A stretch of DNA of 59,096 bases from IMG/VR virus record IMGVR_UViG_3300021185_003222, positions 1 through 59,096 of that record; one strand, written 5' to 3'. Positions 1 through 59,096 of the stretch are shown here, one piece after another (position 1 is the stretch's first letter; every line of letters begins with the position of its first letter). The position numbers and the translations under genes are program-made. The notes below the pieces were generated by a model that was not told where the DNA came from, did not search any database, and worked only from the letters and a program-made list of their open reading frames with translations. This DNA is from a virus. Lineage: Duplodnaviria; Caudoviricetes.

Positions 1-1
1 A

Positions 2-1136: not shown

Positions 1137-1569
1137 CCGCAAGAAAGGTCCGGTAAGATCTAAAAAGGTTAAACATGATGGCATACAATTTGCTTCAGGT
1201 TTAGAAAAACACATGTACATAGCTCTTAAAAAAGCTAAGATAAAAGCACAATATGAGGGACAAACTTACGAGCTTGTCCCTTCTTTTAACTTCGATCAAG
1301 AAGCTTATGAAAGACAAAGTAATGGTAAAGGTGAATACCGTAATAGAGGTAATAAAAAAATACTTAACATCAAGTATACTCCAGATTTTGTGGGAGATAA
1401 TTTTATTATTGAATGTAAAGGACGTGCTAATGAATCTTTTCCCATACGTTGGAAGTTATTTAAAGCTTACGTACATAAACACTTACCGAACATTACGTTA
1501 TACAAACCTCAAAATCAAAAGGAATGCGAAGAAACCGTGAACTTAATTCTTTCCAAAAGAAAGACTTAG
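1114..1569 (+). CDS. T7 endonuclease I-like PD-(D/E)XK Holliday junction resolvase
   Basis: FASGLE...YTPDF...IIECKG motif series. Confidence 0.8.
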   Translation: MTRSRRFSRKKGPVRSKKVKHDGIQFASGLEKHMYIALKKAKIKAQYEGQTYELVPSFNFDQEAYERQSNGKGEYRNRGNKKILNIKYTPDFVGDNFIIECKGRANESFPIRWKLFKAYVHKHLPNITLYKPQNQKECEETVNLILSKRKT

Positions 1570-1721
1570 CCCGAAGAAAATATGCTGAGCGTCAACTTCA
1601 AAAGTTTATTGACTGGAGTATCGAAGCTAAAGGATATTTAAAATATAAAGACTTAATAAAATATTCAAATAAATATGGCCAAACTGACATTATCACTGTA
1701 TCAAGAGAAAAAAAGAGTTAA
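1524..1721 (+). CDS. Hypothetical protein
   Basis: 65-aa ORF filling the gap in a tightly packed operon. Confidence 0.5.
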   Translation: MRRNRELNSFQKKDLARRKYAERQLQKFIDWSIEAKGYLKYKDLIKYSNKYGQTDIITVSREKKS

Positions 1722-1809
1722 AAGAAAAGGAGTGCACAGTAAGTGCAAATCCTCTAACTTAATAGGAAGTAAATTATATAAAAAGAAATATAAAGGACAA
1801 GGAAGATGA
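1675..1809 (+). CDS. Small very basic protein (44 aa) ending YKKKYKGQGR
   Basis: Read manually: MAKLTLSLYQEKKRVKRKGVHSKCKSSNLIGSKLYKKKYKGQGR; stop overlaps next ATG (ATGA). Confidence 0.65.
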   Translation: MAKLTLSLYQEKKRVKRKGVHSKCKSSNLIGSKLYKKKYKGQGR

Positions 1810-2027
1810 AAGAAAGTACTTTGCTAGAAATGCAAAACAAAATTAAAGCTATAACAAATGTGTTGCAGCAATTAATAAACGAACAAACGCACTTAAGAGA
1901 TTTAAGTGTAGGTACATTAGAAGCTTTAAAACTTATGCCAGGTTATGAAAAAGCGATAGAGTTTCTAAAAAAAGAAGTAACTAAAAAAGAAAACGAAGAT
2001 GGAGCTATCGAACAAGATACTAAGTGA
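1806..2027 (+). CDS. Hypothetical coiled-coil protein
   Basis: 73-aa ORF, overlaps both neighbours. Confidence 0.65.
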   Translation: MKESTLLEMQNKIKAITNVLQQLINEQTHLRDLSVGTLEALKLMPGYEKAIEFLKKEVTKKENEDGAIEQDTK

Positions 2028-3861: not shown

Positions 3862-4019
3862 AAAAATTAACAATAATTGCCGGTCTTAGCATGATGACAG
3901 CTGGGACCGGTTATATGGTACATCACAAGAACGCGCCAAGATTTAATATGAATCCTAATACAATGGCAATAGCTACTGGAGGATTCTTTGTTGCGTTTGG
4001 TTTAAGTTATAGATTTTAA
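3858..4019 (+). CDS. Small membrane-associated protein (53 aa) ending GLSYRF
   Basis: Read manually: MKKLTIIAGLSMMTAGTGYMVHHKNAPRFNMNPNTMAIATGGFFVAFGLSYRF; ATGA overlap with nrdJ stop. Confidence 0.6.
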   Translation: MKKLTIIAGLSMMTAGTGYMVHHKNAPRFNMNPNTMAIATGGFFVAFGLSYRF

Positions 4020-4078: not shown

Positions 4079-4084
4079 AATAAT

Positions 4085-4117
4085 AAAAGGGGAGGTCATT
4101 TACGACTTCCCCTTTTT
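4085..4117. terminator. Bidirectional intrinsic terminator between the convergent arms
   Basis: AAAAGGGGAGGTC-ATTTAC-GACTTCCCCTTTTT hairpin with A/T runs both sides; a second small hairpin TGGGTA-TGG-TGCCCA plus T-run follows at 4133-4156. Confidence 0.88.
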
Positions 4118-32356: not shown

Positions 32357-32628
32357 TTACTTCTCCCTTCTGCAAAACCTCTAAAAGTTTTTTGTTCTTT
32401 AACTTCTTTAGGCTTTTCATTTAACATATCTTCCTCTTCTTGTATTCTATTTAATATCTCAAAAGCATCAAATATGGCTAGCTTTTTAGTGGCGGCAGCA
32501 TTTTTTAATCTATCAGCGCTTACATCATCGTCTGAGTCTACAATCTTTTCTTTTGCTACCTTGATAAGTTCCTCAACTGCTTTTTGCCCAGCTAGGATTA
32601 TTTTCTTTTTCGTTTCCTTGGTATTCAT
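32353..32628 (-). CDS. Terminase small subunit (putative)
   Basis: 91-aa helical protein whose stop overlaps the terL start. Confidence 0.6.
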   Translation of the reverse strand: MNTKETKKKIILAGQKAVEELIKVAKEKIVDSDDDVSADRLKNAAATKKLAIFDAFEILNRIQEEEDMLNEKPKEVKEQKTFRGFAEGRSK

Positions 32629-33166
32629 GAGTTAAAGCTATATCATTTGATTTCATACAATAAAGTCGTTCACCTTCTATAATAAACTCAAACTCAGAGT
32701 TAGGTGTAAACGTAATAAGTGTTTCAGGTGTTACTCCTAGAGCTTCTAAGAACTTGTTAGAATATTTCACTATTCCTACATTAGGTTGTTCTTTTCTGTT
32801 CTCTAATGAGTTTTGGTTTTCAATTGGTTTTACAAAACAATAATCTAAGTGAGGCTTCAAATTGTACATGTATATTTGATCTGGTGAAGCAAAGTATAAA
32901 TCATCTTTAAAATACATTGACGAGTTTTGCTCTTCACCTTTCATATTGTACCACCTTCTAAATATATTATGATGCACATATACGTTATCACCAACTTTTA
33001 TTTTTGAAGCATAAGCTGCTGGAGTCGAAACAACAACAGCTTTTTTGCTAATAAAAATGTGGTTTTCAATACTTGTGTTAACTATGAGTTGTTTACCTTT
33101 AATCTCTTTAATATTTTCATATCTATCTTTTAAAGGTTTAATTATAAAGTTATATAAACTTTTCAT
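32573..33166 (-). CDS. Tandem GroES-like (double Cpn10 fold) protein
   Basis: Two repeats: FIIKP...KAVVVSTP...IKVGDNVYV and DYCFVKP...GIVKYS...GVTPETLITF...EFIIEGERLYCMKSNDI, echoing the GroES pattern. Confidence 0.55.
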   Translation of the reverse strand: MKSLYNFIIKPLKDRYENIKEIKGKQLIVNTSIENHIFISKKAVVVSTPAAYASKIKVGDNVYVHHNIFRRWYNMKGEEQNSSMYFKDDLYFASPDQIYMYNLKPHLDYCFVKPIENQNSLENRKEQPNVGIVKYSNKFLEALGVTPETLITFTPNSEFEFIIEGERLYCMKSNDIALTHEYQGNEKENNPSWAKSS

Positions 33167-41552: not shown

Positions 41553-41813
41553 TTAAATTATTACAACAATGTCTGTTTCTTTTATTACTTTGTATTTTTC
41601 TTTATTTATTTCAATATTAAACCCAGCTGCTTTGTCATAATAAACTTCATCATCTTTGTTTAATAATTTAACATCAGAGCCAGGTTCTACAACCTTAGCT
41701 CTTCTGTATCTAATATCTTCTCTTTGCTTCTCAGCCAAGATCAAACCTCCTTTTGTAGTCATATCAGTTTCTTTGATAGGATCTATAACTATATACTTAC
41801 CTACTGCTTTCAT
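41553..41813 (-). CDS. groES: Co-chaperonin GroES
   Basis: MKAVGKYIVI, TKGGLIL mobile loop, KVVEPG, YKVIKETDIVVII; adjacent to groEL. Confidence 0.9.
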   Translation of the reverse strand: MKAVGKYIVIDPIKETDMTTKGGLILAEKQREDIRYRRAKVVEPGSDVKLLNKDDEVYYDKAAGFNIEINKEKYKVIKETDIVVII

Positions 41814-43354
41814 GCTCTAATGTTGTTAATAACACAATCAGTTGACAGTATAGTTGTAGCTACTGAAGCTGCATTTTGTAAAGCACTTTTTGTAACTAAC
41901 ATTGGGTCTATTATACCAGCCTTTATCATATCTACAGGTTCACCTGTAACTACGTTAATACCTTCTCCGTCACTTAGTTTTTTTAACTCATCAATACCAG
42001 CATTTTTAAGTATTAATTCATAAGGTTTTCTTATTGCTGAGTACAGCACTTCTTCACCTATGCATGTTGGTTTTAAATTAAAACTAGCATTTAATAAAGC
42101 AACTCCACCACCACAAACTATTCCTTCTTTAATAGCTGCTTTTGTAGCACAAATTGCATCTTCAACTCTATCTAGTTTTTCTTTTAGTTCTATTTCAGAA
42201 TTAGCACCTACTTTAACTGTAGCTACTTTAGCTTTTAATTTTGCTAATCTTTTTTCTAATCTAACTAAAATATTAGGGTTTTTAGTTTCTTTAATTTGCT
42301 TTTCAAGTAAAACAACTGTTTCTTTAACTTTGTTGTTATTTGAAAGATCAACTTGTAATATAGTTTCTTCATTATTAGTAACGGATTTAATGCACGTGCC
42401 TAGATGTTCTTCTTGGATAATATCCATATCGTCACCAAGGTTCTCGTTAATAAGTGTAGCGCCAGTAACAGCACATAGATCGCTTAACACGTCTTTCTTG
42501 CTGATTCCATATATTGGCGCATCTACGATATTGACCTTTATATTACCCTTCTTTTTATTCATGGCCAACGCGGAAACTACTTGTGGGTCAACATCTGCAA
42601 TGATAAGAAGACTCTTACCATTTTTTATAATAAATTCAAGGATTGACTGAATCTTCCGCACGTTGGGTATTACTGATTCAACGATTAGAACCAACGGATT
42701 TTCAAGTTCAGCCGTTCCTTTTTCTAGATTGGTAATAAAATGGTTGTTCTTTAATGCTTGGTCATATTGAACACCCTCTATTAATTCTACGACAGTTTCA
42801 GGTTGTTCGTTTGTTTCCATCATAACAACACCGGTTTCGTCCACTAACCTAAATGCTTCTCCTATAACCTTGCCTAGCTTCTTATCATTATTAGCTGATA
42901 TAGTAGCTACTTGGTCTATTTTTTTTCCTTTTACTTTTTTGCTATTTTTAGCTAAATACTTTACAACGTTTTCGACGCCAGAATTTATACCATTTCTCAT
43001 GGTTCTTTGATCATCTAATAACGAATGTTCTGTAGCTTGGTCTAAAATAGCTTTTGCTAACACTGTTGCTGTAGTTGTACCGTCACCAGCATCTGATACT
43101 GTACGTTGCGCAGCTTGTTTAATAAGTGTAGCTCCAATATTTTCTAATGGATCTCTCAATGTGATGCTATTAGCAACTGTTACTCCATCTTTTGTTATTT
43201 GTGGTGCGCCATTGCCATCTTCTAGTATAACACATTTTCCACTTGCTCCTAGTGTTGATCCTACTGCATTAGTAAGTTTTTCAACACCAGTTAAGATCTG
43301 ACTTCTAGCAGTATCGCCAAAAGCCAGCTCTTTAACTAACTTTAATTCTTGCAT
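41810..43354 (-). CDS. groEL: Phage chaperonin GroEL
   Basis: ITKDGVTVA, AGDGTTTATVLA, ATISANND, RVEDAICATKAA..EGIV.GGG; no C-terminal GGM tail. Confidence 0.96.
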   Translation of the reverse strand: MQELKLVKELAFGDTARSQILTGVEKLTNAVGSTLGASGKCVILEDGNGAPQITKDGVTVANSITLRDPLENIGATLIKQAAQRTVSDAGDGTTTATVLAKAILDQATEHSLLDDQRTMRNGINSGVENVVKYLAKNSKKVKGKKIDQVATISANNDKKLGKVIGEAFRLVDETGVVMMETNEQPETVVELIEGVQYDQALKNNHFITNLEKGTAELENPLVLIVESVIPNVRKIQSILEFIIKNGKSLLIIADVDPQVVSALAMNKKKGNIKVNIVDAPIYGISKKDVLSDLCAVTGATLINENLGDDMDIIQEEHLGTCIKSVTNNEETILQVDLSNNNKVKETVVLLEKQIKETKNPNILVRLEKRLAKLKAKVATVKVGANSEIELKEKLDRVEDAICATKAAIKEGIVCGGGVALLNASFNLKPTCIGEEVLYSAIRKPYELILKNAGIDELKKLSDGEGINVVTGEPVDMIKAGIIDPMLVTKSALQNAASVATTILSTDCVINNIRA

Positions 43355-50259: not shown

Positions 50260-51660
50260 TTATGAAATTGTTGCGTTAGTTATTGTTGTTACTTTAGTGG
50301 CGATATATATTTTGTAATCTACCTCCCACAAATTATCTTTTGATTTTATTGTAAAGTTTGTTGGTAAAGGAAACAAATCATCAGACTGCTGTCCTATAGT
50401 ACCATTGTTTAATGCCGTAGCATACCAAGCTGTTTTATTGGAAAATTTATTATAAGTTAAAAACCAGCACCATTCACCATCAGCATTGAAATTCATTGAC
50501 AAGCTTCCAGAGCTATTAGCAACCACCTTGTTAACAGAAGAGTCTCCAGCTATTATTAAGTCTTTTATTTGCTGAGTTGTTAGTTGAGATGATGATTTAC
50601 CGTAGAAGTATGGATAATACCCGGTAATTGTTCTGTTATTAGAACTTTTATTATTTTGAGCTGCTTGAGGAGCAGAGGAGCTGCCTACAGTAGGGGTTCT
50701 AGTATCATAAACACCCTTGTTATTTTTCAATGCTAGGCCAGACCCATAGTCACCTTCTCCAGAATATGTTGTAGTTGTGCTAGTAGCGTTGCCAGTTGGC
50801 GCAGGTACAATGTAACTACTAGTAACATATGACGTGCTATAAGTTTTATTAGGGTTATTGTCATTGTCGAAGCCAAATTGTTGAGGAAGCTCCGTTATGG
50901 TTGCAACAGTTGGAGAGGTTGTTTGTATTAATTGAGTAGAACCTCTTAGTATTTTTAATCTTGTAAACGCTCCTGCGTCTTTTTTAGTGCCTAAAAGCGT
51001 TAAAGTTGGATTAACAGTCGACCCTATCTCTTTTATTCCTGTAACCGTGCTTGATAAAACTAAAGTAGCTGGCTTATATTGCGGTAAAACAGTAGGAAAC
51101 AGTAAAGTATCCCACATTTGCACTAAATTCATATCTTTTATTCCAGATACCTTAGTGCCAGCATCAAAACCGCCAATTGTAGAGGCCATTTCCGTGTCAG
51201 TGCCCAAGCTAGTGTTGTATACAGCATTTAAATCCGCTTGAGTTCCATCAACTCCAACAGATAATCCACTTTTAAAGTTTAATGAAGTAGCTTCTGCTAT
51301 TTTTTGTACGTCATCTTCTTTAATAGATATGCTCCCACCACCACTTGTAGGGTCGATGTATGTTAATCCACTAGCGTCTGCGTTGACAGCTAGTAATTGA
51401 TTAGCGTTTCCTATAGTAGCTAAGCCTGTTCCGCCTAAAGTAGTGGGAATTACATCATTAATGCTTATGTTGATGTCTCCAGTGGCTTTGTCTACCGCTA
51501 AAGGAGATGTAGCTGTGATCTTGTCTACTACATCAATGGCTTCTCTAACACTACTTATAGTTATTTTCTTAGTTTTTTTCTTATCTGCTGTATCACTAAT
51601 GATCAGTAGGTCAGTTAAACTAGGTAACGCTTTAGTTTTATAAGTATATATTATAGCCAT
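50260..51660 (-). CDS. Fibre-associated structural protein (proximal)
   Basis: N-terminus resembles that of 43747..45348; C-terminus paralogous to 48919..50256. Confidence 0.65.
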   Translation of the reverse strand: MAIIYTYKTKALPSLTDLLIISDTADKKKTKKITISSVREAIDVVDKITATSPLAVDKATGDINISINDVIPTTLGGTGLATIGNANQLLAVNADASGLTYIDPTSGGGSISIKEDDVQKIAEATSLNFKSGLSVGVDGTQADLNAVYNTSLGTDTEMASTIGGFDAGTKVSGIKDMNLVQMWDTLLFPTVLPQYKPATLVLSSTVTGIKEIGSTVNPTLTLLGTKKDAGAFTRLKILRGSTQLIQTTSPTVATITELPQQFGFDNDNNPNKTYSTSYVTSSYIVPAPTGNATSTTTTYSGEGDYGSGLALKNNKGVYDTRTPTVGSSSAPQAAQNNKSSNNRTITGYYPYFYGKSSSQLTTQQIKDLIIAGDSSVNKVVANSSGSLSMNFNADGEWCWFLTYNKFSNKTAWYATALNNGTIGQQSDDLFPLPTNFTIKSKDNLWEVDYKIYIATKVTTITNATIS

Positions 51661-51920
51661 TATCTCTTTTTACGTTTAGTTTTTTTGCTTTCTCTTTTAG
51701 TTCCCTTACCATCATTACCTCTGTTGGCTTTTATGGATTCAAATCTTTCATCATCGTGATCGTAGTCTTTTCCCTTTAACCATGATATACCGTATTTTTT
51801 AATAGCTTCCCTTCTCTTCTTTTGATTCTCTGCCTTCTTCTTTCTTCTTGCAGGAGTCTTTGCCGCTGCTAGATCTCTTTTCTTTTTAGCAGCTCTTGCT
51901 TTAGCTGATAGTATACTCAT
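51660..51920 (-). CDS. Small basic protein with degenerate HNH-like motif
   Basis: GKDYDH......S...NRG; first gene of the late arm. Confidence 0.45.
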   Translation of the reverse strand: MSILSAKARAAKKKRDLAAAKTPARRKKKAENQKKRREAIKKYGISWLKGKDYDHDDERFESIKANRGNDGKGTKRESKKTKRKKR

Positions 51921-51949
51921 GTTTTAAGTTTTAGTCTTATTTATACTAT

Positions 51950-51974
51950 ATCACAGAAAAACACTCGTTTTTAC
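51950..51974 (-). promoter_or_regulatory. Putative late promoter heading the structural arm
   Basis: GTAAAAACGAGTGTTTTTCTGTGAT, about 30 nt upstream of the first late gene. Confidence 0.5.
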
Positions 51975-52008
51975 CCTATAGTACTAACATAAATAAATTA
52001 TGGGTAGG

Positions 52009-52054
52009 GTGACATTAGCCCCTTACTAGGCTAGGTCTAAGACCCTATTGTCAC
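52009..52054. other. Branched inverted-repeat element in the divergent intergenic region
   Basis: GTGACA...TGTCAC outer stem enclosing TAGCC/GGCTA and GGTC/GACC hairpins. Confidence 0.55.
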
Positions 52055-52100
52055 ACTGCTGTAAGATATATATAATATAAGTACTGTACCCCTAACCCCC

Positions 52101-52175
52101 TGATTGTCAACTAATTACAAATTGGTTTTTATATTGCCCAGTCCACTTAACCATTTGATTATCAACGATTTACAA
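52101..52175 (+). repeat. Two imperfect 20-nt direct repeats with IHF-site-like cores
   Basis: TGATTGTCAACTAATTACAA (52101) and TGATTATCAACGATTTACAA (52156); the second matches WATCAANNNNTTR exactly. Confidence 0.6.
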
Positions 52176-52246
52176 TAACCTTTTCCTTTCCTTCATCACA
52201 ATAAATCTTAATTTGTCTACAACTATTTACCTTTTACTTATTATAT

Positions 52247-52277
52247 ACAGATTTAATACAAGATATATAAGATAATA
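52247..52277 (+). promoter_or_regulatory. Early promoter-like motif copy 1
   Basis: ACAGATTTAATAC-N10-AGATAATA. Confidence 0.7.
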
Positions 52278-52304
52278 TATACGAATCTAAATTAAATAAA
52301 CAAT

Positions 52305-52553
52305 ATGACTATCAATTTAAAATATAATAAACTCAATTCAATTCTAAATAACAATTCTGAAATACATTACATAATTGACTCAGACAATTTCTTCGACGAG
52401 AATAATATCAACATGTCTCAATTCAATAATAATAAATTTATATTATTTGAATACACAACTAACTGGCCTGAAACTATTCAACTATTAAAACAAAATAACA
52501 TAAACTATTCTATTCATACTGACGAACTAGAATTACAATATATAATAATCTAA
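52305..52553 (+). CDS. Early hypothetical protein (N/I-rich)
   Basis: 82-aa ORF directly after motif copy 1. Confidence 0.55.
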   Translation: MTINLKYNKLNSILNNNSEIHYIIDSDNFFDENNINMSQFNNNKFILFEYTTNWPETIQLLKQNNINYSIHTDELELQYIII

Positions 52554-52667
52554 TTAACTAATATATCACTCAATTATAATAAACATCTGATATTCAGGGT
52601 AAATTATAGAGAAGTCGCGTGTAGTACCTACTAACTAAAATAAACTAATAAACAAACATACACTCAC

Positions 52668-52698
52668 ACAAACTAAATACAAAACCACTCAGATAATA
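52668..52698 (+). promoter_or_regulatory. Early promoter-like motif copy 2
   Basis: ACAAACTAAATAC-N10-AGATAATA. Confidence 0.8.
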
Positions 52699-52724
52699 TA
52701 TATAACTAAAATAAAATATATACT

Positions 52725-52955
52725 ATGACATTTAAAATAACTAACATAACATTAAAAACTTTTACATCAAATAATAAAAACTATAATAATATTAACTACA
52801 CTATTTTTATTAAACAACTAAATCAAACAATTAATATTACTAAACAATATATTAACTTTAAAACTAAAAACTATTTAATTGACATAATTGACTCAATAAA
52901 TAATCAAGACAATTTAAATAATCAACTAATAAACTTTATAAATAACAAATATTAA
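52725..52955 (+). CDS. Early hypothetical protein (nearly G-free coding strand)
   Basis: 76-aa ORF bracketed by motif copies 2 and 3. Confidence 0.5.
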   Translation: MTFKITNITLKTFTSNNKNYNNINYTIFIKQLNQTINITKQYINFKTKNYLIDIIDSINNQDNLNNQLINFINNKY

Positions 52956-52957
52956 AT

Positions 52958-52988
52958 ACAAACTAAATACAAACAGCAACAGATAATA
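52958..52988 (+). promoter_or_regulatory. Early promoter-like motif copy 3
   Basis: ACAAACTAAATAC-N10-AGATAATA. Confidence 0.8.
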
Positions 52989-53029
52989 TAAACGTAAACT
53001 AAATAACAAATAAATAAAATAAAATAAAT

Positions 53030-53266
53030 ATGAAAACTAATAACTTAACTACTAAAAGATTTGTAATCAGAAAATCATTACTTAATACTAATACAGTAAT
53101 CACTTTCACTAACAAAAAAGATATAACATTCACTTATAATCACGATGAAATTTATACTAAGTTTCAAACTAAATTTGACGAAATGAATTGTTTTCAAAAG
53201 TATAAATCTTATACAAATAGTAATACTGTTCCAAAATTCTGCAGAGAATTAAGTACTCAGTCTTAA
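53030..53266 (+). CDS. Early hypothetical protein
   Basis: 78 aa (TKRFVIRKSL...CFQKYKSYTNSNTVPKF). Confidence 0.65.
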   Translation: MKTNNLTTKRFVIRKSLLNTNTVITFTNKKDITFTYNHDEIYTKFQTKFDEMNCFQKYKSYTNSNTVPKFCRELSTQS

Positions 53267-53331
53267 AACTAAAAGTCGACGTTGATAGTAATACTTTAAC
53301 GACTATAAATAACACGAACATATTACTCAGC

Positions 53332-53362
53332 ACAAACTAAATACTACAAAGTGTAGATAATA
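53332..53362 (+). promoter_or_regulatory. Early promoter-like motif copy 4
   Basis: ACAAACTAAATAC-N10-AGATAATA. Confidence 0.8.
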
Positions 53363-53388
53363 ATATAAACTAAATAAATATAATAACT

Positions 53389-53592
53389 ATGTCTTATAAT
53401 CCAAACAATCCAAGTAATTGGTCGTGGTCAAAAGCTTTTGCAGAAATGGACAAAACTGTTCATGAAGCTGAAATGACTCAACAATGTATAAATCACATAC
53501 TAGATTATCCTGGTGAAGCTAATGGTGTCTTTATGTCACTAAACAAAACTCAACAAGATGATGTTTACGAAATACTAAATGAAATACTATGA
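53389..53592 (+). CDS. Early hypothetical protein
   Basis: 67-aa ORF after motif copy 4. Confidence 0.6.
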   Translation: MSYNPNNPSNWSWSKAFAEMDKTVHEAEMTQQCINHILDYPGEANGVFMSLNKTQQDDVYEILNEIL

Positions 53593-53726
53593 ATAATTTA
53601 AATACTACAATAGACAAAGTAGCAATGTCAGAATTTGACACGCACTACTATCAACTTGGTGATAACGAGAAACAATGGTGTCACGATGAAATGATTAATA
53701 ACAAGAAATGGTTAAAAAGAATATGA
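53589..53726 (+). CDS. Early hypothetical protein (45 aa)
   Basis: Read manually: MNNLNTTIDKVAMSEFDTHYYQLGDNEKQWCHDEMINNKKWLKRI; ATGA overlaps at both ends. Confidence 0.55.
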   Translation: MNNLNTTIDKVAMSEFDTHYYQLGDNEKQWCHDEMINNKKWLKRI

Positions 53727-53980
53727 ATAAAATAATACTAACAATTGGAATGGCTAGTTCGTTACTAGTCTTACCAGCAAAAAAAGATGGTACAATAGTA
53801 AACTCAGTAGAACAAAATAAATATCTACTAAGTGAAGCTTTAAATAATATCCAGAATATGAGAGAATGGATGCTAAGTGATATAGACAATGATAATATAA
53901 CTACAGATCTAGGTGAATTTTATATTGAAAATCTTAATGAAGTTGAAGATATATTAATTGAAATTGCTAATACAAATTAA
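53723..53980 (+). CDS. Early protein with N-terminal hydrophobic signal/anchor
   Basis: MNKIILTIGMASSLLVL..., acidic C-terminus; ATGA coupling favours start 53723. Confidence 0.55.
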   Translation: MNKIILTIGMASSLLVLPAKKDGTIVNSVEQNKYLLSEALNNIQNMREWMLSDIDNDNITTDLGEFYIENLNEVEDILIEIANTN

Positions 53981-54002
53981 ATACAATCACTAATAGATAA
54001 TA
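53972..54002 (+). promoter_or_regulatory. Early promoter-like motif copy 5
   Basis: ACAAATTAAATAC-N10-AGATAATA. Confidence 0.8.
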
Positions 54003-54007
54003 TAATC

Positions 54008-54259
54008 ATGAAATATATACAAACAGATAACTTAACAGTTATAGATTACGGTGACGACACAGGTAAACTACTAATATATAATAGAACTAAATCACCTTAC
54101 GGTTACAACCCAAGAAATCTTATTGTATCTTTATTTGGCAGACCACTAAAAGAAATTACGTACAACTATGTACAAAAACAAGTAGACAAAGTCTATTCTA
54201 CTTTTAACTATAACGAAATAGACGAACTAATAAATAAAATAAATAATGAAAATAAATAA
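54008..54259 (+). CDS. Early hypothetical protein
   Basis: 83-aa ORF starting 5 nt after motif copy 5. Confidence 0.6.
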   Translation: MKYIQTDNLTVIDYGDDTGKLLIYNRTKSPYGYNPRNLIVSLFGRPLKEITYNYVQKQVDKVYSTFNYNEIDELINKINNENK

Positions 54260-54386
54260 TATAGCTCCAATAGTATTCGGAATACTAATGATAACACTAA
54301 TAGCACTTGCAACATCTTGTACAACTCAAGAAAAAATGGTAGGTAATTATTATAATCACTCTAAATATTGTCCAGCTTATAACTAA
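54246..54386 (+). CDS. Small lipoprotein (46 aa)
   Basis: Read manually: MKINNIAPIVFGILMITLIALATSCTTQEKMVGNYYNHSKYCPAYN; hydrophobic signal and ATSC lipobox. Confidence 0.6.
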   Translation: MKINNIAPIVFGILMITLIALATSCTTQEKMVGNYYNHSKYCPAYN

Positions 54387-54387
54387 T

Positions 54388-54621
54388 ATGAAACTAACTA
54401 ACGAAGAAAAAGACGAAATTACTTGGAAAGTAGTTGACTCACTATATGAAAAATTAGCTAACGAGCTAGAATATGAACTACAAGAACATGAAAACTTTCC
54501 AGAAACTAATGATGCTTATATGGATTTATTCAATGAAATGACTATAAAAATAGTAAAGTATATGAGAAGTGAGCTGTTCTCTCCAGGAACAAGTGAGGAT
54601 TTAGAACTTTATAAAAGATAA
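54388..54621 (+). CDS. Early acidic hypothetical protein
   Basis: 77-aa ORF. Confidence 0.6.
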   Translation: MKLTNEEKDEITWKVVDSLYEKLANELEYELQEHENFPETNDAYMDLFNEMTIKIVKYMRSELFSPGTSEDLELYKR

Positions 54622-54624
54622 AAT

Positions 54625-54795
54625 ATGACAGAACAACAAGCAATTGAAGCAATCGCTAATGATATACAGGATGGTATCTACGGTTGGACACAGAAATGTG
54701 GAACAGAGTGGCAGAAGTGGACATACTCACTAAATCTAGCTAGAAAAATATATGAAGGTGAATTAATAATAGATTTAAGTATAGACAATGAATAG
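54625..54795 (+). CDS. Early hypothetical protein (56 aa)
   Basis: Read manually: MTEQQAIEAIANDIQDGIYGWTQKCGTEWQKWTYSLNLARKIYEGELIIDLSIDNE. Confidence 0.55.
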   Translation: MTEQQAIEAIANDIQDGIYGWTQKCGTEWQKWTYSLNLARKIYEGELIIDLSIDNE

Positions 54796-54970
54796 AGATA
54801 GAGAATGGGATTTTATGGAAGAGCATAGAGAAGAAGAAAAGTCTTTGCTAGCAACAGTAGGAATAGTAGTCAGAGAACTAACTATAAAGTGTCCTAATGA
54901 TCAAGAACTAGGTAAAGAAGTAAGAGAACTAATTAAAAAATACAAATTAAATACAAATACTAACAGATAA
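54788..54970 (+). CDS. Early hypothetical protein
   Basis: 60 aa with PNDQELGKEVR motif. Confidence 0.6.
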   Translation: MNRDREWDFMEEHREEEKSLLATVGIVVRELTIKCPNDQELGKEVRELIKKYKLNTNTNR

Positions 54971-54972
54971 TA
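54942..54972 (+). promoter_or_regulatory. Early promoter-like motif copy 6
   Basis: ACAAATTAAATAC-N10-AGATAATA. Confidence 0.8.
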
Positions 54973-54977
54973 TATAT

Positions 54978-55121
54978 ATGAAAACAATTAAATTTTACGC
55001 AAGTAACAGATCACTAATCAGATTAGATGGCAAATTACTAAAAGGTTACACTATAGATAGTATACCAGACGAATATACAAGCTGGTTCAACTACAAAGGC
55101 TTAACTTACATAACAAGTTGA
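54978..55121 (+). CDS. Early hypothetical protein (47 aa)
   Basis: Read manually: MKTIKFYASNRSLIRLDGKLLKGYTIDSIPDEYTSWFNYKGLTYITS. Confidence 0.55.
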   Translation: MKTIKFYASNRSLIRLDGKLLKGYTIDSIPDEYTSWFNYKGLTYITS

Positions 55122-55131
55122 CAAACAACTG

Positions 55132-55179
55132 ACGAATTATAGCTCATACTTAACCTGTATGGGCTTTTCGTGGTATGAA
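55132..55179 (+). promoter_or_regulatory. Structured leader element, short copy
   Basis: AGCTCATAC/GTATGGGCT stem then TTTCGTGGT-ATG; 19-nt identity with 58081-58099. Confidence 0.6.
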
Positions 55180-55618
55180 ATGTAACCACAATATTCCACA
55201 AGCAAGATTAGATCTTGGCTATACTGAGTGTGTTGATTGCTCAACAGTAGAAAAACTCGGTTGTATCGACACTATTCATCACAAAACAGGCAACACTATT
55301 CAAGTAATGTCACGTGAAGATGCAGACAAAGCTAGTAAGCTCACTCAAAGAGCAGGCTTTGGCATACTAAGATCCATGGCAGGTGGTTCAAGTCAACGTA
55401 AACCTAAGTATAAATACGATGGATGCTCAACTACTTATGTAGGTAACGACAATATGTTCGAGCAAGTAGGTAAAACTTACATCGATTTCTTAGATGTTGA
55501 CAAAGAAATTGCAGAGCGCTATCTCGATCGAGCGCTAAACAATCTAGAAATATCTCAATTACAATATAATAAGATAAAACTACTTTGTAACAGACTAAAT
55601 ACGATCACTATTAGATAA
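55175..55618 (+). CDS. Protein with N-terminal DksA/TraR-like zinc-finger fragment
   Basis: CNHNIPQARLDLGYTECVDC matches the C..IP..RL.......C..C pattern. Confidence 0.55.
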   Translation: MKCNHNIPQARLDLGYTECVDCSTVEKLGCIDTIHHKTGNTIQVMSREDADKASKLTQRAGFGILRSMAGGSSQRKPKYKYDGCSTTYVGNDNMFEQVGKTYIDFLDVDKEIAERYLDRALNNLEISQLQYNKIKLLCNRLNTITIR

Positions 55619-55620
55619 TA
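55590..55620 (+). promoter_or_regulatory. Early promoter-like motif copy 7
   Basis: ACAGACTAAATAC-N10-AGATAATA. Confidence 0.8.
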
Positions 55621-55633
55621 TATTAAATAATAT

Positions 55634-55792
55634 ATGAATAAAATAACAAAACAACTCGAAAACTTGTATTCTTGGACAAAATTCTATCAAGATCGAGGTA
55701 ATAAAGAAGCAATTAGAAAGTGTCAAACTGAAATAGCCCAGTTGAAAATGGCTTTTAACCAACTAAAATCTAACAAAAATGGCAAAAAATAG
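55634..55792 (+). CDS. Early hypothetical protein (52 aa)
   Basis: Read manually: MNKITKQLENLYSWTKFYQDRGNKEAIRKCQTEIAQLKMAFNQLKSNKNGKK. Confidence 0.55.
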   Translation: MNKITKQLENLYSWTKFYQDRGNKEAIRKCQTEIAQLKMAFNQLKSNKNGKK

Positions 55793-56171
55793 AACGCTAA
55801 ACGAAATTAGACAATCAAAAGAGTATCAACAAGCTGTTGAACTAAGTGATCAAGGCGGTAAGTATACTGTTCCAAGTAAAGGCCACGCTGCTGTAGCTTT
55901 AAAAGAATTAAAAGGTGAAAACTTTTATGAAAATCCTTTTTCTCATGCAGATGTAGACGAAACTGTTGAAACAATAGTAGAAAAGCTAGATGGTCACATG
56001 TATGACTTAATATTTCAAGCAGTTTGTGATGAAATGAATAATCACTATGTATTTGACTCAACAGAATACTTAACTCAAGCAGGTTTAGAACTATTTGAAG
56101 ACGAATGGTTCGAGTTTTATCATGAAAATCATGGTAGAATAATTAATAAACTACTAAAAAACTTAAAATAA
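55779..56171 (+). CDS. Early acidic hypothetical protein
   Basis: 130-aa ORF. Confidence 0.6.
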   Translation: MAKNRTLNEIRQSKEYQQAVELSDQGGKYTVPSKGHAAVALKELKGENFYENPFSHADVDETVETIVEKLDGHMYDLIFQAVCDEMNNHYVFDSTEYLTQAGLELFEDEWFEFYHENHGRIINKLLKNLK

Positions 56172-56365
56172 TGAAGAAATTTAACGGAATGGAGTCAAAT
56201 CTTATTATAGATGCGCTACAATTTTATGTAGCTCAAGTAGAAAAAGATATATTAGAATTAGAAAAAGAAGGTAAAACATCTATATTTGCACCTGGTTTTT
56301 ATACTATGATCTCAAAAGACTTGAAAGATAAAGTAAAATCTATGACTAAAAAAGCAAAAATATGA
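56171..56365 (+). CDS. Early hypothetical protein
   Basis: 64-aa ORF, coupled both sides. Confidence 0.6.
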   Translation: MKKFNGMESNLIIDALQFYVAQVEKDILELEKEGKTSIFAPGFYTMISKDLKDKVKSMTKKAKI

Positions 56366-56811
56366 ATTACGCTATATTTGACATGGATGATACTCTATGC
56401 ACTTTAGAGCATCGTAGAAACAAAGCGATGGAATCAGGTAGCATGAATTTTAATATATTATTTGATCCTAAGCTAGTTGAATACGACTTACCTGAAGATC
56501 ATGTAGTAGATTTAGCTCAAACACTAAAAATGTTTAATACTAAAATAATAGTAATGACAGCTAGGCCATATTATATGGATATAGCTACACGTAAGTGGTT
56601 GGTTAAGAACAACATACCTTTTGATCAATTAATAACTAAAGAAAAAAATAAAGTATTTCAAAAGTCTAGCTTATGGAAAGAGTCTAAATTACAAGAGCTA
56701 TTAGAAGATATTAGTATTGAACAAATAGTTTTATCTATTGATGACAATATGGATAATCAAGCTATGTTTGAATCTTATGGAATACCAATTTTTAATCCAC
56801 TATTACAATAA
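56362..56811 (+). CDS. HAD-family phosphatase (T4 PseT 3'-phosphatase-like)
   Basis: AIFDMDDTL, VMTARP, WK, SIDDN = HAD motifs I-IV. Confidence 0.8.
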   Translation: MNYAIFDMDDTLCTLEHRRNKAMESGSMNFNILFDPKLVEYDLPEDHVVDLAQTLKMFNTKIIVMTARPYYMDIATRKWLVKNNIPFDQLITKEKNKVFQKSSLWKESKLQELLEDISIEQIVLSIDDNMDNQAMFESYGIPIFNPLLQ

Positions 56812-56813
56812 TT

Positions 56814-56844
56814 ACAAACAAAATACAAACACTATAAGATAATA
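56814..56844 (+). promoter_or_regulatory. Early promoter-like motif copy 8
   Basis: ACAAACAAAATAC-N10-AGATAATA. Confidence 0.8.
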
Positions 56845-56849
56845 TAAAT

Positions 56850-57071
56850 ATGATATACGACAGACTTAAACCACATATCAAAGCCAATATGAAAGAAAAT
56901 GCTAAAGAGTATAAAACTGTAAACTGGCTACTTGATACACTAAAACAAAAACACAGTTATTCTGACTTAACTATCGACGAAATAAGATCTATATGTACAT
57001 TTGGCGATGTATGGTATCACGATCTAACTCAAAGAGACATTATATGGGGTGATTGGCTAACAAATAAATAA
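56850..57071 (+). CDS. Early hypothetical protein
   Basis: 73-aa ORF starting 5 nt after motif copy 8. Confidence 0.6.
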   Translation: MIYDRLKPHIKANMKENAKEYKTVNWLLDTLKQKHSYSDLTIDEIRSICTFGDVWYHDLTQRDIIWGDWLTNK

Positions 57072-57072
57072 A

Positions 57073-57420
57073 ATGACAGAAGAAAAACTAGCAATAGAAA
57101 CACTCACTGCACTAGGTTGCAAAGATGTTACAACAAATAGACAAAAGAAAAACGGTACAACTTGTTTTGAATTACCTACAGGTGACATTGTTTCTGAACA
57201 TAAAACGGGTTATATTAGAAAATATATGACTTGGAAAGGTAAGAAAATAACCTGTTATCAACTAAATCCACAATACAAAACTCCATATAAAATGATTTGG
57301 TCAAATGGCGAGCTGTATGAAGGAACTCATAACAGAAGAATGTTGATATTTAATAGAGCTGAAAGACTAAAAAGACTTGTATTATATACTATTAAGCAAA
57401 TAAATCAAGCTAATGGATAA
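57073..57420 (+). CDS. Early hypothetical protein
   Basis: 115 aa (DVTTNRQKKNGT...GYIR...CYQLN). Confidence 0.65.
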   Translation: MTEEKLAIETLTALGCKDVTTNRQKKNGTTCFELPTGDIVSEHKTGYIRKYMTWKGKKITCYQLNPQYKTPYKMIWSNGELYEGTHNRRMLIFNRAERLKRLVLYTIKQINQANG

Positions 57421-57505
57421 TGACAAAAGAGACTTAGCGCTAATAATGGCAGTTTTAGCGCTAATGCTATACACAATTTTACTAACTGTCTCAATATTAA
57501 ATTAA
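57413..57505 (+). CDS. 30-aa single-transmembrane peptide
   Basis: Read manually: MDNDKRDLALIMAVLALMLYTILLTVSILN; fills the gap. Confidence 0.45.
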   Translation: MDNDKRDLALIMAVLALMLYTILLTVSILN

Positions 57506-57515
57506 ATTAACTAAC

Positions 57516-57965
57516 ATGGAACAAAAAGAACCAACACAAGAAAAAATAATAGAAGCTGTAAAAAAGTATTACGGCTTAAAAATAGATGAAAACGCTTATA
57601 TGAACGCAGACGTATATGCATACGAAGAAACAACCGCAGATGGTTATTCTGTATATGTTGTAACAGGCGATATGAATAGTGTATGCATAGCTGAAGATGT
57701 GTATTATTATGAAAGTGATATACCGTCAGCAATTATGGAATATGTAGAGTATGCTAATGGCCAATGTACAATATATGCAGATCAATACTTCTTAGATGAT
57801 ATATACTTTGACGATATGTTACTAGAATCATTTCAAGAAGTAGCAGACAAGATATATGACGAAATTATGAATGAAGACAGTGACTACAACTTTGACATGG
57901 CAGAACTGCAATGGTTAAAAGAAGAATTTACTGAATCAGAAGAGATTAATCAGACTGTTAGTTAG
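57516..57965 (+). CDS. Highly acidic, aromatic-rich early protein
   Basis: 149 aa dominated by D/E/Y. Confidence 0.65.
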   Translation: MEQKEPTQEKIIEAVKKYYGLKIDENAYMNADVYAYEETTADGYSVYVVTGDMNSVCIAEDVYYYESDIPSAIMEYVEYANGQCTIYADQYFLDDIYFDDMLLESFQEVADKIYDEIMNEDSDYNFDMAELQWLKEEFTESEEINQTVS

Positions 57966-57983
57966 TTAATAGTAGTTTAGTTT

Positions 57984-58099
57984 CCACGAACATGGTGCCT
58001 TACAATTTAAAATAAGGTCAGCTCGTATTAAACTGTCGTTTTAAATACTCAGAGAGGAGATATTAAAACAGGTTTGGTACGGGCTTTTCGTGGTATGAA
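57984..58099 (+). promoter_or_regulatory. Structured leader element, long copy (three-way junction)
   Basis: CCACGAA/TTCGTGG closing stem, GCCTTA/TAAGGT hairpin, long AGCTCGTA.../...TACGGGCT hairpin, then ATG at 58095. Confidence 0.6.
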
Positions 58100-58310
58100 T
58101 AATATAAATATGATGAAAGCGTTTATGTTGTTAGGAGATCTATCAACTAAACAAGGTGACGAGCTATCAGACATGGCCGTCAAATACCAAGAAAGAATAG
58201 CTTTTGCTACAATGAGAGCTAGTATACCTGATTGGCAACCACCAAGTAATTGGGATAGTCTAAGTAATGAAGAAAAAAACAAAAGACTTAAAAAGTTACA
58301 GTCATTATGA
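58095..58310 (+). CDS. Early hypothetical protein
   Basis: In frame with ORF 58074..58310; ATG 58095 favoured by analogy with 55175; P.NWD.LS.EEK..RL motif. Confidence 0.6.
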   Translation: MNNINMMKAFMLLGDLSTKQGDELSDMAVKYQERIAFATMRASIPDWQPPSNWDSLSNEEKNKRLKKLQSL

Positions 58311-58417
58311 GTTGCAGTTACTGTAACGAACCACTTTCTTTTGAACAAGAAATATACTTTGAAAAACATGTACAAGAAATGCCTTTATGCACACAATGTA
58401 CACTTTTCAATACGTAA
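58307..58417 (+). CDS. 36-aa C4 zinc-finger peptide
   Basis: Read manually: MSCSYCNEPLSFEQEIYFEKHVQEMPLCTQCTLFNT; ATGA overlap. Confidence 0.55.
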   Translation: MSCSYCNEPLSFEQEIYFEKHVQEMPLCTQCTLFNT

Positions 58418-58419
58418 TT

Positions 58420-58450
58420 ACAAACTAAATACAACAACTAACGGATAATA
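58420..58450 (+). promoter_or_regulatory. Early promoter-like motif copy 9
   Basis: ACAAACTAAATAC-N10-GGATAATA. Confidence 0.78.
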
Positions 58451-58455
58451 TTAAT

Positions 58456-58770
58456 ATGAAACAAGACGAAATAGAAAAATTAGCTCAACTATTATTTGAT
58501 AAAATAATGGAAAAGCAAGAACAAGCCGATATAGAATATGCTGACCAAATTCAACAGTTATATAATAACGGTTATGTTATAGAAAAATCTAACAAAAAAG
58601 ACGACATGGAAGGCTTAAACAGTGAGGAAAGACTAGTTGGTGAACTAGCTAGATTACAAACTATCATGATGATATTTGAAGATAAAGAAGAATACGAAAA
58701 AGCAGCTATGATACAGAAGAAAATAGAAATAATAAATAGAAAATTAAATGACGGATCAGGTAAATATTAA
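58456..58770 (+). CDS. Protein with C-terminal UVR (UvrB/C-type) coiled-coil motif
   Basis: FEDKEEYEKAAMIQKKIE resembles the EDYE.AA..RD.I UVR motif. Confidence 0.55.
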   Translation: MKQDEIEKLAQLLFDKIMEKQEQADIEYADQIQQLYNNGYVIEKSNKKDDMEGLNSEERLVGELARLQTIMMIFEDKEEYEKAAMIQKKIEIINRKLNDGSGKY

Positions 58771-59096
58771 AGCTATGCTAGCGCATAAGTATAATGAAGA
58801 TAAAGCAGATTACCCTGCTTATATACAACCAAAACTAGACGGCGTACGTTGTCTATTTACTGCCAATGGCGCGTTCTCTCGTGCTAATAACCAGTTTATG
58901 AACGTAGATCACATAACAAAAGATTTAAAGCCTGTATTTGACAGATACCCTACGCTAATTCTTGATGGCGAACTATACAATCACGGACTAAAAGATGACT
59001 TTGAAAAGATTATATCTCTTGTAAAGAAGAAAAAACCAACAGATGATGACAAAGCAGAAGCTGCAGAACTAGTACAATATCATATATATGATGTAG
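58748..59096 (+). CDS. ATP-dependent DNA ligase (3'-truncated)
   Basis: Read manually: AMLAHKY...IQPKLDGVRC (KxDGxR)...SR...ILDGELY...YHIYDV; runs off the window. Confidence 0.9.
   Translation, partial: MTDQVNIKAMLAHKYNEDKADYPAYIQPKLDGVRCLFTANGAFSRANNQFMNVDHITKDLKPVFDRYPTLILDGELYNHGLKDDFEKIISLVKKKKPTDDDKAEAAELVQYHIYDV

Follow-up and report, generated by a model that had tools for sequence, protein, structure and literature searches.

A conserved, modular, sense-strand RNA structure between early genes of uncultured marine phages

Results

Two identical sequences span the starts of two unrelated genes

The window analysed here is the whole 59,096-base stretch of the phage record. The 19-mer GGGCTTTTCGTGGTATGAA occurs in it exactly twice, at 55161-55179 and 58081-58099, against an expectation of zero (0 in 100 shuffles), and nowhere else even with up to 3 mismatches allowed. 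As a preliminary description of this DNA had claimed, the two copies hold the start codons of two unrelated genes: the ATG at 55175 opens an ORF of 147 aa and the one at 58095 an ORF of 71 aa, and the two proteins give no local alignment at E<=100. The 147-aa protein has no Pfam or PHROG match; its N-terminus matches NCBIfam TIGR02419 with E = 4.5e-4 and 20.7 bits, below the cutoff of 59.7. The features of both copies are as follows.

54978-55121, + strand: upstream ORF of 47 aa; its TGA stop (55119..55121) lies 10 nt before the closing helix of copy 1
55132..55136, + strand: copy 1, 5' arm of closing helix P1 (ACGAA), paired with 55167-55171 in the minimum-energy fold
55141..55165, + strand: copy 1, hairpin P3, made of AGCTCATAC, a 7-nt loop and GTATGGGCT; the A-U variant of the covarying pair
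55165..55168, + strand: copy 1, TTTT run directly 3' of P3; the first T can close P3 and the last two lie within P1
55167..55174, + strand: copy 1, 3' arm of P1, TTCGT(GG), and the single T before the ATG (from sequence and minimum-energy fold)
55175..55618, + strand: downstream gene 1, 147 aa, with a weakly TraR-type zinc-finger-like N-terminus
57516-57965, + strand: upstream ORF of 149 aa with a TAG stop (57963..57965); more stop triplets (TTAATAGTAGTTTAG) lie before P1
57984..57990, + strand: copy 2, 5' arm of P1 (CCACGAA), paired with 58087-58093
57997..58018, + strand: copy 2, inserted hairpin P2 (GCCTTA...TAAGGT) in the minimum-energy fold
58020..58085, + strand: copy 2, P3, AGCTCGTAT...GTACGGGCT, the G-C variant, with its loop replaced by a 48-nt extension hairpin
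58085..58094, + strand: copy 2, TTTT run, 3' arm of P1 (TTCGTGG) and the single T before the ATG (from sequence and fold)
58095..58310, + strand: downstream gene 2, 71 aa, without a family match and unrelated to gene 1

The pairing partners proposed for the 19-mer are present in both copies. In the first, AGCTCATAC (55141-55149) faces GTATGGGCT (55157-55165); in the second, AGCTCGTAT (58020-58028) faces GTACGGGCT (58077-58085). The outer pairing of ACGAA with TTCGT joins 55132-55136 to 55167-55171 in copy 1 and is longer in copy 2, where CCACGAA (57984-57990) pairs with TTCGTGG (58087-58093). RNAfold, suggested as a check, returns these helices as the minimum-energy fold of both copies. Copy 1 folds at -16.9 kcal/mol (z -3.6; 1/200 shuffles as good). 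Copy 2 is indeed predicted to form a three-way junction, at -39.4 kcal/mol (z -4.25; 0/200 shuffles as good). Its P2 module recurs in other elements and positions (e.g. loci L044, L054 and L089), and the stop-rich leader before its P1 is also present in relatives. Both genes lack the usual A-rich leader, as first noted, and the promoter-like motif of neighbouring genes is missing as well. The 19-mer makes up the 3' half of an RNA structure that is conserved and modular and belongs to the sense strand.

Both helices are retained while the parts between them vary

Across relatives, the element is built of a closing helix P1 (CCACGAA/TTCGTGG) around variable hairpins and an invariant 10-bp hairpin P3, then TTTT. 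Its minimal form measures about 45 nt. The 5' end of P1 starts 0-18 nt past the upstream stop codon in 41/48 copies, 18 nt being the commonest class.

The P3 stem, of 9-10 bp, is retained in all 33 distinct copies, whose 330 pair cells are 97.9% standard pairs, against 28-48% in slid controls. The covariation seen between the two copies of the record holds in this set, with G-C in 18, A-U in 15 and an unpaired combination in none; the conserved wobble holds too, with U.G in 32 copies and C-G in 1. Six other P3 pairs show one-sided changes that keep the pairing. Every wobble is G.U on the + strand, so that the complementary strand would have A.C mismatches. The covariation is essentially one double change that split two paralogous lineages, later recombined, and its statistical weight is therefore modest.

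Both helices withstand inserts of 23-53 nt in the P3 loop and of up to ~80 nt in the stretch separating P1 from P3. The P3 loops are variable or replaced by these 23-53 nt and have no common sequence, while the TTTT run after the hairpin is intact in 49/50 copies. For P1, 44/47 copies have, in the 100 nt before P3, a complement of at least 5 nt to the 3' arm, against 24% of shuffles. A minimum-energy test of the same helix is non-discriminating: it is paired in 38/47 real copies and in 149/235 with the upstream sequence shuffled. Genome G035 reads ACACGAA...TTCGTGT, a 3' change that restores the outer P1 pair and the sole compensatory case found in this helix.

The element recurs in one orientation in early regions of marine phages

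The carriers are uncultured marine phages that form one group. Of 50 copies from 35 IMG/VR records, 47 have the 19-nt core without any change, and the core occurs in at least 125 marine metagenome stretches. Genomes hold 1-4 copies, in the early region only; within any one record all of them (50 copies in total) run in the direction of the genes beside them. Some copies form tandem arrays without intervening genes (L091, G012). One complete relative is without the element.

In cultured phages, a search with copy 1 (E<=10) gave only chance matches of 18-23 nt in unrelated phages, and a distant-mode search of the early region against phages found a ligase fragment only. The element was not found in bacterial genomes when one genome per prokaryote species was searched with the 19-mer. 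Mimicry of a host sequence was rejected as an origin, the 19-mer being present only in 4 tiny AT-rich MAG contigs that resemble this phage and as 2 chance matches in GC-rich genomes.

The core is kept even in a phage whose early proteins are only 31-59% identical. G035 and G020, with early proteins of 31-59% identity and unrelated flanks, have in common 65 identical bases that reach from one arm of P1 to the other. The same inner modules stand behind at least 4 different upstream genes, and variants with swapped modules coexist in one RNA library (joints X17 and X19). No target-site duplication was seen in the flanks read.

Look-alike hairpins with long T runs (L102/L123, L121, L117), first taken as distant homologues with a canonical terminator, were all dropped; the flanks of L102, L121 and L123 hold no protein in common with this phage. 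On metagenome contig L303, two copies 166 nt from each other face opposite ways, and one of them is crossed by an antisense ORF. This contig, which may represent either a genuine convergent junction or a chimera of assembly, was left out of the analysis.

The start codon is a frequent but non-obligatory neighbour

The preliminary description had the element end at a start codon. This is frequent, in 35/47 true IMG/VR copies and 90/126 metagenome-contig copies (71-74%), in which exactly 1 nt separates P1 from the ATG. Not all copies in relatives do so, however: the start codon is a non-obligatory part. The copies that abut an ATG precede 17 clusters of unrelated N-termini, or about 17 gene families. 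What comes after the remaining ones is a promoter-like motif, an A-rich leader or a further copy; the motif comes directly after the element, in terminator-then-promoter order, in 4/47 IMG/VR copies and several metagenome copies. Whatever comes next, TA follows CGTGG in 47/47 true IMG/VR copies.

Other early genes have a GATAAT-N6-ATG motif instead, with the ATG exactly 6 nt past GATAAT in 47/61 promoter-like motifs. This geometry is as expected for transcription starting at the A of the ATG and suggests leaderless mRNAs. Relative G039 lacks the element; before its homologue of gene 1 stands the promoter-like motif in the element's place. Positions -12 to -7 read GCTTTT, unlike GATAAT or TATAAT.

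Known families and trans-acting factors

Comparison with Rfam 15, also proposed at the outset, gave 0 matches in the 59,096-nt record at gathering thresholds and 0 in the early regions of two relatives; with 20 element loci at E<=1, it returned one sub-threshold rpsL sRNA match on the opposite strand and nothing else. No Rfam family thus matches the element. ARAGORN found no tRNA or tmRNA in the record or in 6 loci, and no tRNA-like signature was seen. Searches against Pfam, PHROGs and PDB sequences gave neither a phage RNA polymerase nor a sigma factor, and no N4-like or crAss-like virion RNA polymerase was found, the 3365-aa protein being without a DxDxD motif. No nuclease gene was recognised in the 59,096-nt record, no candidate RNA-binding protein was identified among the phage genes, and no transposase or homing nuclease was recognised. 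Our literature searches for such elements in Flavobacterium or Cellulophaga phages listed nothing relevant, and within them we found no published description.

Of the original proposal, an undescribed cis-regulatory RNA, the cis-acting structure is supported: it has no Rfam family, covaries, has G.U pairs on the sense strand only, keeps its helices through inserts and recurs in many related phages. What does not stand in full is the obligatory start codon and the weight of the covariation. The roles then listed, a translational operator, a processing site or an attenuator, are still the leading, putative candidates.

Discussion

A putative punctuation of early transcripts

The element probably governs the passage of expression between successive genes. 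As the best single explanation, held tentatively, we propose a cis-acting sense-RNA punctuation of polycistronic early transcripts that would combine a leaky terminator with a clamp handing over the start codon. P3 with its short U run would act as a weak intrinsic terminator or attenuator for the host RNA polymerase, ending or thinning the upstream message and leaving a stable 3' hairpin on it. In read-through RNA, P1 would close over the whole insert and bring the upstream stop codon and the downstream AUG to the foot of one helix, regardless of insert length. A ribosome arriving at the stop codon would melt P1 and expose the AUG, so that the next cistron, itself lacking promoter and leader, would receive coupled, low-level translation. 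The element would thereby replace the GATAAT-N6-ATG motif used by neighbouring genes; being self-contained from P1 arm to P1 arm, it may also serve as an exchange site for gene cassettes between phages.

The phage does use terminators made of a hairpin and a T run, for instance at the convergent junction 4083-4116 (5 T). Some contigs from RNA runs bridge both copies (X7: 55104-55338 and 57073-58786). This is read-through or contaminating DNA and nothing more: the RNA runs were seen as contigs, whose depth and ends cannot reveal transcript ends. Against a leaky terminator, the U run has four bases and is partly paired in P1, so termination may be negligible. At the 18-nt spacing, a ribosome on the stop codon would barely reach P1. 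The exact 19-nt sequence, kept in 47/50 copies, is unneeded by a terminator or a coupling clamp; it suggests either that a specific factor recognises the unit or that the unit has spread recently.

The main rival, which we consider possible but rather unlikely, is a processing signal. Here a host or phage endoribonuclease would recognise the clamped hairpin and cut at the foot of P1, between GGU and AUG. The upstream message would keep a protective 3' structure and the downstream one would be leaderless from its AUG, like the apparent GATAAT-N6-ATG messages. Sequence invariance suits a specific nuclease, and the constant 1-nt spacing to the ATG in 17 unrelated gene families, together with the unfailing TA after CGTGG, speaks for this reading. 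So does the apparent norm of 5'-terminal AUGs in this phage, and the element and the promoter-like motif interchange before the same gene. Yet no nuclease gene was recognised in the record, the element carries no tRNA-like signature to recruit RNase P or Z, its helices are short for RNase III, and about 1/4 of the copies have no following ATG. A phage-encoded regulator might instead bind the RNA, as a translational repressor at the abutting AUG or as an antitermination factor. At lambda nut sites, an antitermination factor is loaded at a hairpin and a linear box, and the two nut sites are alike, just as copies within one of these genomes are. The near-perfect conservation of P3 and of the linear TTTTCGTGGTA, the few copies per genome and their single orientation in the early region agree with such a site. 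We nevertheless regard it as improbable: the loop of P3, where a protein would usually make contact, varies or is swapped for long inserts, control at the AUG is impossible for those copies with a promoter motif or a long leader behind them, and no candidate protein was identified.

Another reading takes the element as a selfish or neutral insertion, or as a recombination linker: a self-folding unit with short inverted ends that would spread between phages without any function of its own in expression, tolerated because it folds out of the way. The 65 bases shared by G035 and G020, the modules behind several upstream genes, the module-swapped variants in one library and the complete relative without the element all speak for it. 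It is nonetheless a poor candidate, since the element always lies in sense orientation and in the early region only, the flanks show no target-site duplication, no transposase or homing nuclease was recognised, and without selection such exact abutment of the ATG would not easily arise across 17 gene families. We give still less credence to a promoter at the DNA level, of middle or hairpin type, with the transcript starting at or next to the ATG and possibly joined to a terminator hairpin as in the PeSLs of T4-type phages. About 19-26 invariant bp do stand in fixed register with the ATG of many genes, and the element takes the place of the promoter-like motif before one of them; PeSLs join a stem-loop and a promoter between stop and ATG (PMC2839356). 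But the searches gave no phage RNA polymerase or sigma factor, GCTTTT does not resemble the -10 hexamers, and the conserved P1 5' arm and sense-only G.U pairs are sensible only if the upstream arm is co-transcribed. Least credible is an ordinary, efficient intrinsic terminator and nothing more. A hairpin and T run soon after stop codons, and the terminator-then-promoter order in some relatives, would suit it; however, most copies adjoin an ATG with no room for a promoter, so that the downstream genes would be silent, the run has four T only, a consensus scan for terminators over 51500-59096, which asks for 5 T or more in 8, lists neither copy, and conservation of P1 and the flanking sequence would be unneeded.

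Significance

The element marks the exact joints of early-gene swapping in these phages, and the GATAAT geometry suggests leaderless messages as the rule in this abundant marine group. Bacteroidota hosts are not known to use Shine-Dalgarno pairing. If the punctuation cassette works as proposed, it shows how expression passes from cistron to cistron in phages of such hosts, and would offer a compact, portable part for tuning or insulating genes in Flavobacteriia. A bolder variant is conceivable though doubtful: the clamped hairpin would replace a promoter by directing a cut or a ribosome transfer between GGU and AUG, giving a leaderless-type start inside polycistronic RNA. Punctuation by tRNAs in mitochondria and ribosome shunting are known modes of this kind, and the element would be their counterpart in bacterial viruses, a self-contained unit moving between phages with whichever gene comes after.

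Comparison with known systems

A lambda-type nut site joins a linear box to a hairpin with a conserved loop, to which an N-type protein binds. The likeness to it is limited to layout, since the element has an unconserved loop and no N-like gene was recognised. N4-type hairpin promoters go with a virion RNA polymerase gene and have a short stem and a small conserved loop on the template strand. Here no polymerase was found in the 3365-aa ORF or elsewhere, the loop is variable and G.U pairs occur only on the non-template strand. The tRNA-like substrates of RNase P and Z have an acceptor-like stem and an arm with a T-loop signature, unlike the element, for which ARAGORN was negative (record, 6 loci) and whose P3 loops vary. 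RNase III sites between T7 early genes leave the upstream message with a 3' hairpin and give the next cistron a fresh 5' end immediately ahead of it. Like the copies of the element, they are intergenic, structured and alike, and recur a few times along one polycistronic early transcript; the helices of the element are shorter and interrupted by branch hairpins, and its cleavage is only putative.

With intrinsic terminators and attenuators the element shares a G+C-rich hairpin on the sense RNA just past a stop codon, and the U run after it (TTTT then CGTGGTA) may correspond to their U-rich tract. It differs in that the run is short and lies inside an outer helix, the sequence is invariant beyond the hairpin, and the next start codon comes 10 nt after it.

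The start-associated sequences (SAS) of Cluster K mycobacteriophages are 13-bp sequences with a Shine-Dalgarno-like core, 3-8 bp before starts and 11-19 per genome; for the inverted repeats of the related ESAS, the authors found no support for RNA pairing (PMC3203893). Both systems place a phage-specific, conserved, asymmetric sequence a few bases upstream of unrelated non-structural gene starts, in one orientation and absent from the host (PMC3203893). The element has a different sequence, no Shine-Dalgarno core, 1-4 copies and supported RNA pairing.

Also close are the PeSL (promoter-early stem-loop) cassettes of T4-type phages. These carry a sigma-70-type promoter and a Shine-Dalgarno sequence. 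Like the element they contain a stem-loop that includes G.T pairs; it works in them as terminator or attenuator, a role that is putative in the element (PMC2839356; PMC4122927). They are concentrated, as is the element, among small early or accessory genes where related phages differ in cassettes, and the element likewise spans the intergenic gap between a stop codon and an ATG, carries a stem-loop and sits at mosaic boundaries. The element has neither a Shine-Dalgarno sequence nor an embedded -35/-10 (no GATAAT/TATAAT-like hexamer at the right distance); it has instead a helix that closes off the whole unit, inner hairpins that can be exchanged, a near-invariant 19-nt core and 1-4 copies per genome.

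Two copies of a clamped hairpin in the window

The element occurs twice in the window, each time directly before a gene:

55132-55174 (+), copy 1
55175-55618 (+), gene 1 (147 aa)
57984-58094 (+), copy 2
58095-58310 (+), gene 2 (71 aa)

The 19-mer at 55161 and 58081 is identical in both copies, with no third site at up to three mismatches and none in 100 shuffles. As the preliminary description held, it contains the ATG of two unrelated genes: both ATGs open reading frames, and the two proteins are unrelated. The helix pairings named there are present in the sequence and coincide with the minimum-energy folds, a two-helix stem for copy 1 (−16.9 kcal/mol, z −3.6) and the anticipated three-way junction for copy 2 (−39.4 kcal/mol, z −4.25). 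Only one or two genes follow each element before a promoter-like motif, at 55596 and 58426, respectively. The start of gene 1 resembles half of a TraR-like zinc finger, weakly (NCBIfam E 4.5e-4, under cutoff). Between gene 2 and the next motif, a 36-aa ORF (58307-58417, +) carries two CxxC pairs, as in a mini zinc ribbon.

Architecture and pairing

A search with the 17-mer core found 38 IMG/VR stretches. A pattern ending before ATG gave 55 matches in 53 stretches; eight that lie in GC-rich or coding sequence (L042, L045, L050, L070, L053, L088, L059 and L079) were dropped as chance matches, leaving 47 true copies. All are closed by an outer helix, P1, pairing CCACGAA or a shorter form with TTCGTGG. 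Inside it, zero, one or several variable hairpins precede the conserved hairpin P3, whose arms AGCTCRTAC and GTAYGGGCT flank a loop of 5-8 nt or, in its place, a hairpin of 23-53 nt. After P3 comes a TTTT run that shares its final bases with P1, and TA follows.

Rich in G+C and in some cases capped by a GNRA-type or UUCG-type loop, the inner hairpin modules (locus L203, 1200-1520; locus L091; window 57991-58019 and 58029-58076) reappear at various positions and in various combinations. One, closed by CACG...CGTG, sits between tandem copies. In the phage record G012, structured non-coding RNA of up to ~330 nt lies between two genes.

Across 33 distinct P3 sequences, standard pairs fill 97.9% of 330 cells, versus 28-48% with a slid partner. 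The A-U to G-C covariation seen between the window copies extends to this set: the R:Y pair is G-C in 18 and A-U in 15, with no mismatch, and six further pairs show one-sided changes that keep pairing. All wobbles are G.U when read on the plus strand; the sense strand is thus the only one that folds well.

Covariation cannot be scored in P1 because its 3′ arm is invariant; three observations support this helix. In 44 of 47 copies, versus 24% of shuffles, the 100 nt upstream contain a complement of the 3′ arm at least five bases long; the 5′ arm begins 0-18 nt past the stop codon of the preceding gene in 41 of 48 copies; and the divergent phage G035 has ACACGAA...TTCGTGT, where the 3′ change restores the outermost pair. 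Pairing of P1 in minimum-energy folds (38/47 real versus 149/235 shuffled) does not discriminate.

Position between genes

The element joins one gene's end to the next gene's start. TA follows CGTGG in 47/47 true IMG/VR copies. Directly 3′ of the element stands TATG in 35 of the 47 and TAGATG in four; a 17-nt A-rich leader follows in two, the promoter-like motif in four and other sequence in two, one of which begins a tandem array. Among the metagenome matches listed, TATG follows in 90 and TAGATG in 6 of 126 contexts with enough sequence. Among the matches listed, 60 distinct 15-residue N-termini, forming 17 clusters, start at the ATG abutting P1, and the first 15 codons are free of stops in all 17 cluster representatives. 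Upstream, at least nine different C-termini occur. With so many different genes on either side, the element sits at joints of differing gene content.

Conservation and spread

We searched 39 records at up to three mismatches: 34 from an exact-core scan, four from a hairpin-only scan (including G035, whose core has one change) and one protein-level relative (L101). Of these, 35 contain the 19-mer, in 50 copies of which 47 are exact, versus none for the reversed control; each of the 35 holds 1-4 copies, on one strand only. By the same search, the complete relative G039 has no element. Neighbouring proteins share 80-89% identity among close relatives, and just 31-59% in G035. G035 and the phage record G020 nevertheless have 65 identical bases in a row, from the P1 5′ arm to the P1 3′ arm, while their flanks are unrelated; the unit thus behaves like a self-contained module. 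Single marine RNA libraries can hold, side by side, variants whose inner modules have been swapped (joints in X17 and X19).

At least 125 metagenome stretches carry the element; those among the matches listed are all marine assemblies, judging by their names. It was not found in the cultured-phage collection, nor in bacterial genomes (one per prokaryote species) except four phage-like MAG scraps. A 1.2-kb metagenome contig (L303) holds two opposite-facing copies, 161-179 (+) and 345-363 (−), 166 nt apart, one of them crossed in antisense by an ORF; the contig reflects either a genuine convergent junction or a chimeric assembly.

The phage and its early promoter-like motif

The 59,096-base record has an estimated completeness of 94%. 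It encodes a portal protein with 42-50% identity to podophage portals of Flavobacterium, Cellulophaga, Maribacter and Tenacibaculum. The main features are:

52305 to window end, on into 1-4019 (+), small-gene block; the 1-4019 part has a ligase fragment, MazG, resolvase and ribonucleotide reductase
Minus strand, terminase, virion proteins, crAss-type muzzle domain, GroEL/GroES, holin and amidase
4083-4116, canonical bidirectional terminator (A run, GGGGAGGTC / GACTTCCCC hairpin, T5) at the convergent junction of the plus-strand block and the 3365-aa gene
4161-14258 (−), 3365-aa ORF
16558-18528 (−), 656-aa virion protein; its C-terminal domain matches the crAss-type muzzle (Pfam E 1.9e-7)
32573-33166 (−) and 41553-43354 (−), a Cpn10/GroES-like protein and a 514-aa GroEL (PHROG E 6e-129), respectively
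52674-52727, 52964-53032, 53338-53391, 53978-54010, 54948-54980, 55596-55636, 56820-56852 and 58426-58458 (+), promoter-like motif sites

The muzzle domain hints at a structural tie to crAss-like podophages. The sole recognisable domain of the 3365-aa ORF is a zeta-toxin/PNK-like P-loop kinase (residues ~2298-2483); it lacks the DxDxD motif and an RNA polymerase signature, and its product is probably an ejected virion protein. As Pfam, PHROGs and PDB sequence searches recognised no RNA polymerase or sigma factor in the window, we assume transcription by the host polymerase.

Bacteroidota generally translate without Shine-Dalgarno pairing. The motif AAATAC, ~11 nt, GATAAT precedes eight plus-strand early genes in the window, with ATG exactly 6 nt past GATAAT in four; over the window and 32 loci, an ORF's ATG has this spacing in 47 of 61 distinct motif copies. 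This is the spacing that GATAAT would have as a −10 element if transcription started at the A of ATG, which suggests leaderless mRNAs for these genes, in a Flavobacteriia-type phage. In G039, the promoter-like motif stands before the gene 1 homologue, in the place that the element takes in the window.

G039 also contains, between early genes, a GC-rich non-coding stretch of ~260 nt (locus L218, ~4250-4450, −). There a 7-bp acceptor-like stem (TAGGCGC/GCGCCTA) encloses branches, and the stretch finishes with a hairpin whose loop is T-arm-like (GGCAGGTTCGATTCCTGCC); neither ARAGORN nor Rfam makes a call. Its layout of closing stem, inserts and 3′ hairpin parallels the element, and the promoter-like motif comes after it.

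Possible function

We rank first a two-part punctuation role. P3 with its short U run would act as a leaky terminator, a part favoured because the phage uses hairpin-plus-T-run terminators and because some copies precede a promoter motif or further copies. P1 would be a clamp holding stop and start together, the next cistron being expressed through coupling. RNA-library contigs (X7) bridge both window copies, at 55104-55338 and 57073-58786; they may derive from DNA, since the late-gene region is covered too.

The chief alternative is cleavage at GGU|AUG, which would yield a leaderless message. It accounts better than punctuation for the exactness of the spacing, for a TA and a core sequence that hardly vary, and for the replacement of the element by a leaderless-type promoter; however, no nuclease was recognised in the window, and the RNA libraries, read as contigs only, show no RNA end. 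Ranked below cleavage are binding by a regulator, promoter activity, a selfish module and simple termination.

Comparison with known systems

Rfam has no family matching the element, and neither it nor a literature search on Flavobacterium/Cellulophaga phages returned a description. The proposal of an undescribed cis-regulatory RNA holds as far as a conserved, orientation-specific, sense-strand structure goes; how it would act is our reading of sequence and context. Features tested for an N4-type hairpin promoter and for a tRNA-like structure are absent.

The start-associated sequences of Cluster K mycobacteriophages (PMC3203893) are placed much like the element, but they have a Shine-Dalgarno-like core and a different copy number, and RNA pairing is rejected for them, whereas it is supported here. 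In its likely action the element comes closest to the PeSL cassettes found in T4-type phages (PMC2839356, PMC4122927), although their defining feature, an embedded promoter plus Shine-Dalgarno sequence, is missing from it and its copy number differs. We place the element among intercistronic terminators or processing elements, as a form not described so far to the extent that Rfam and the literature search show.
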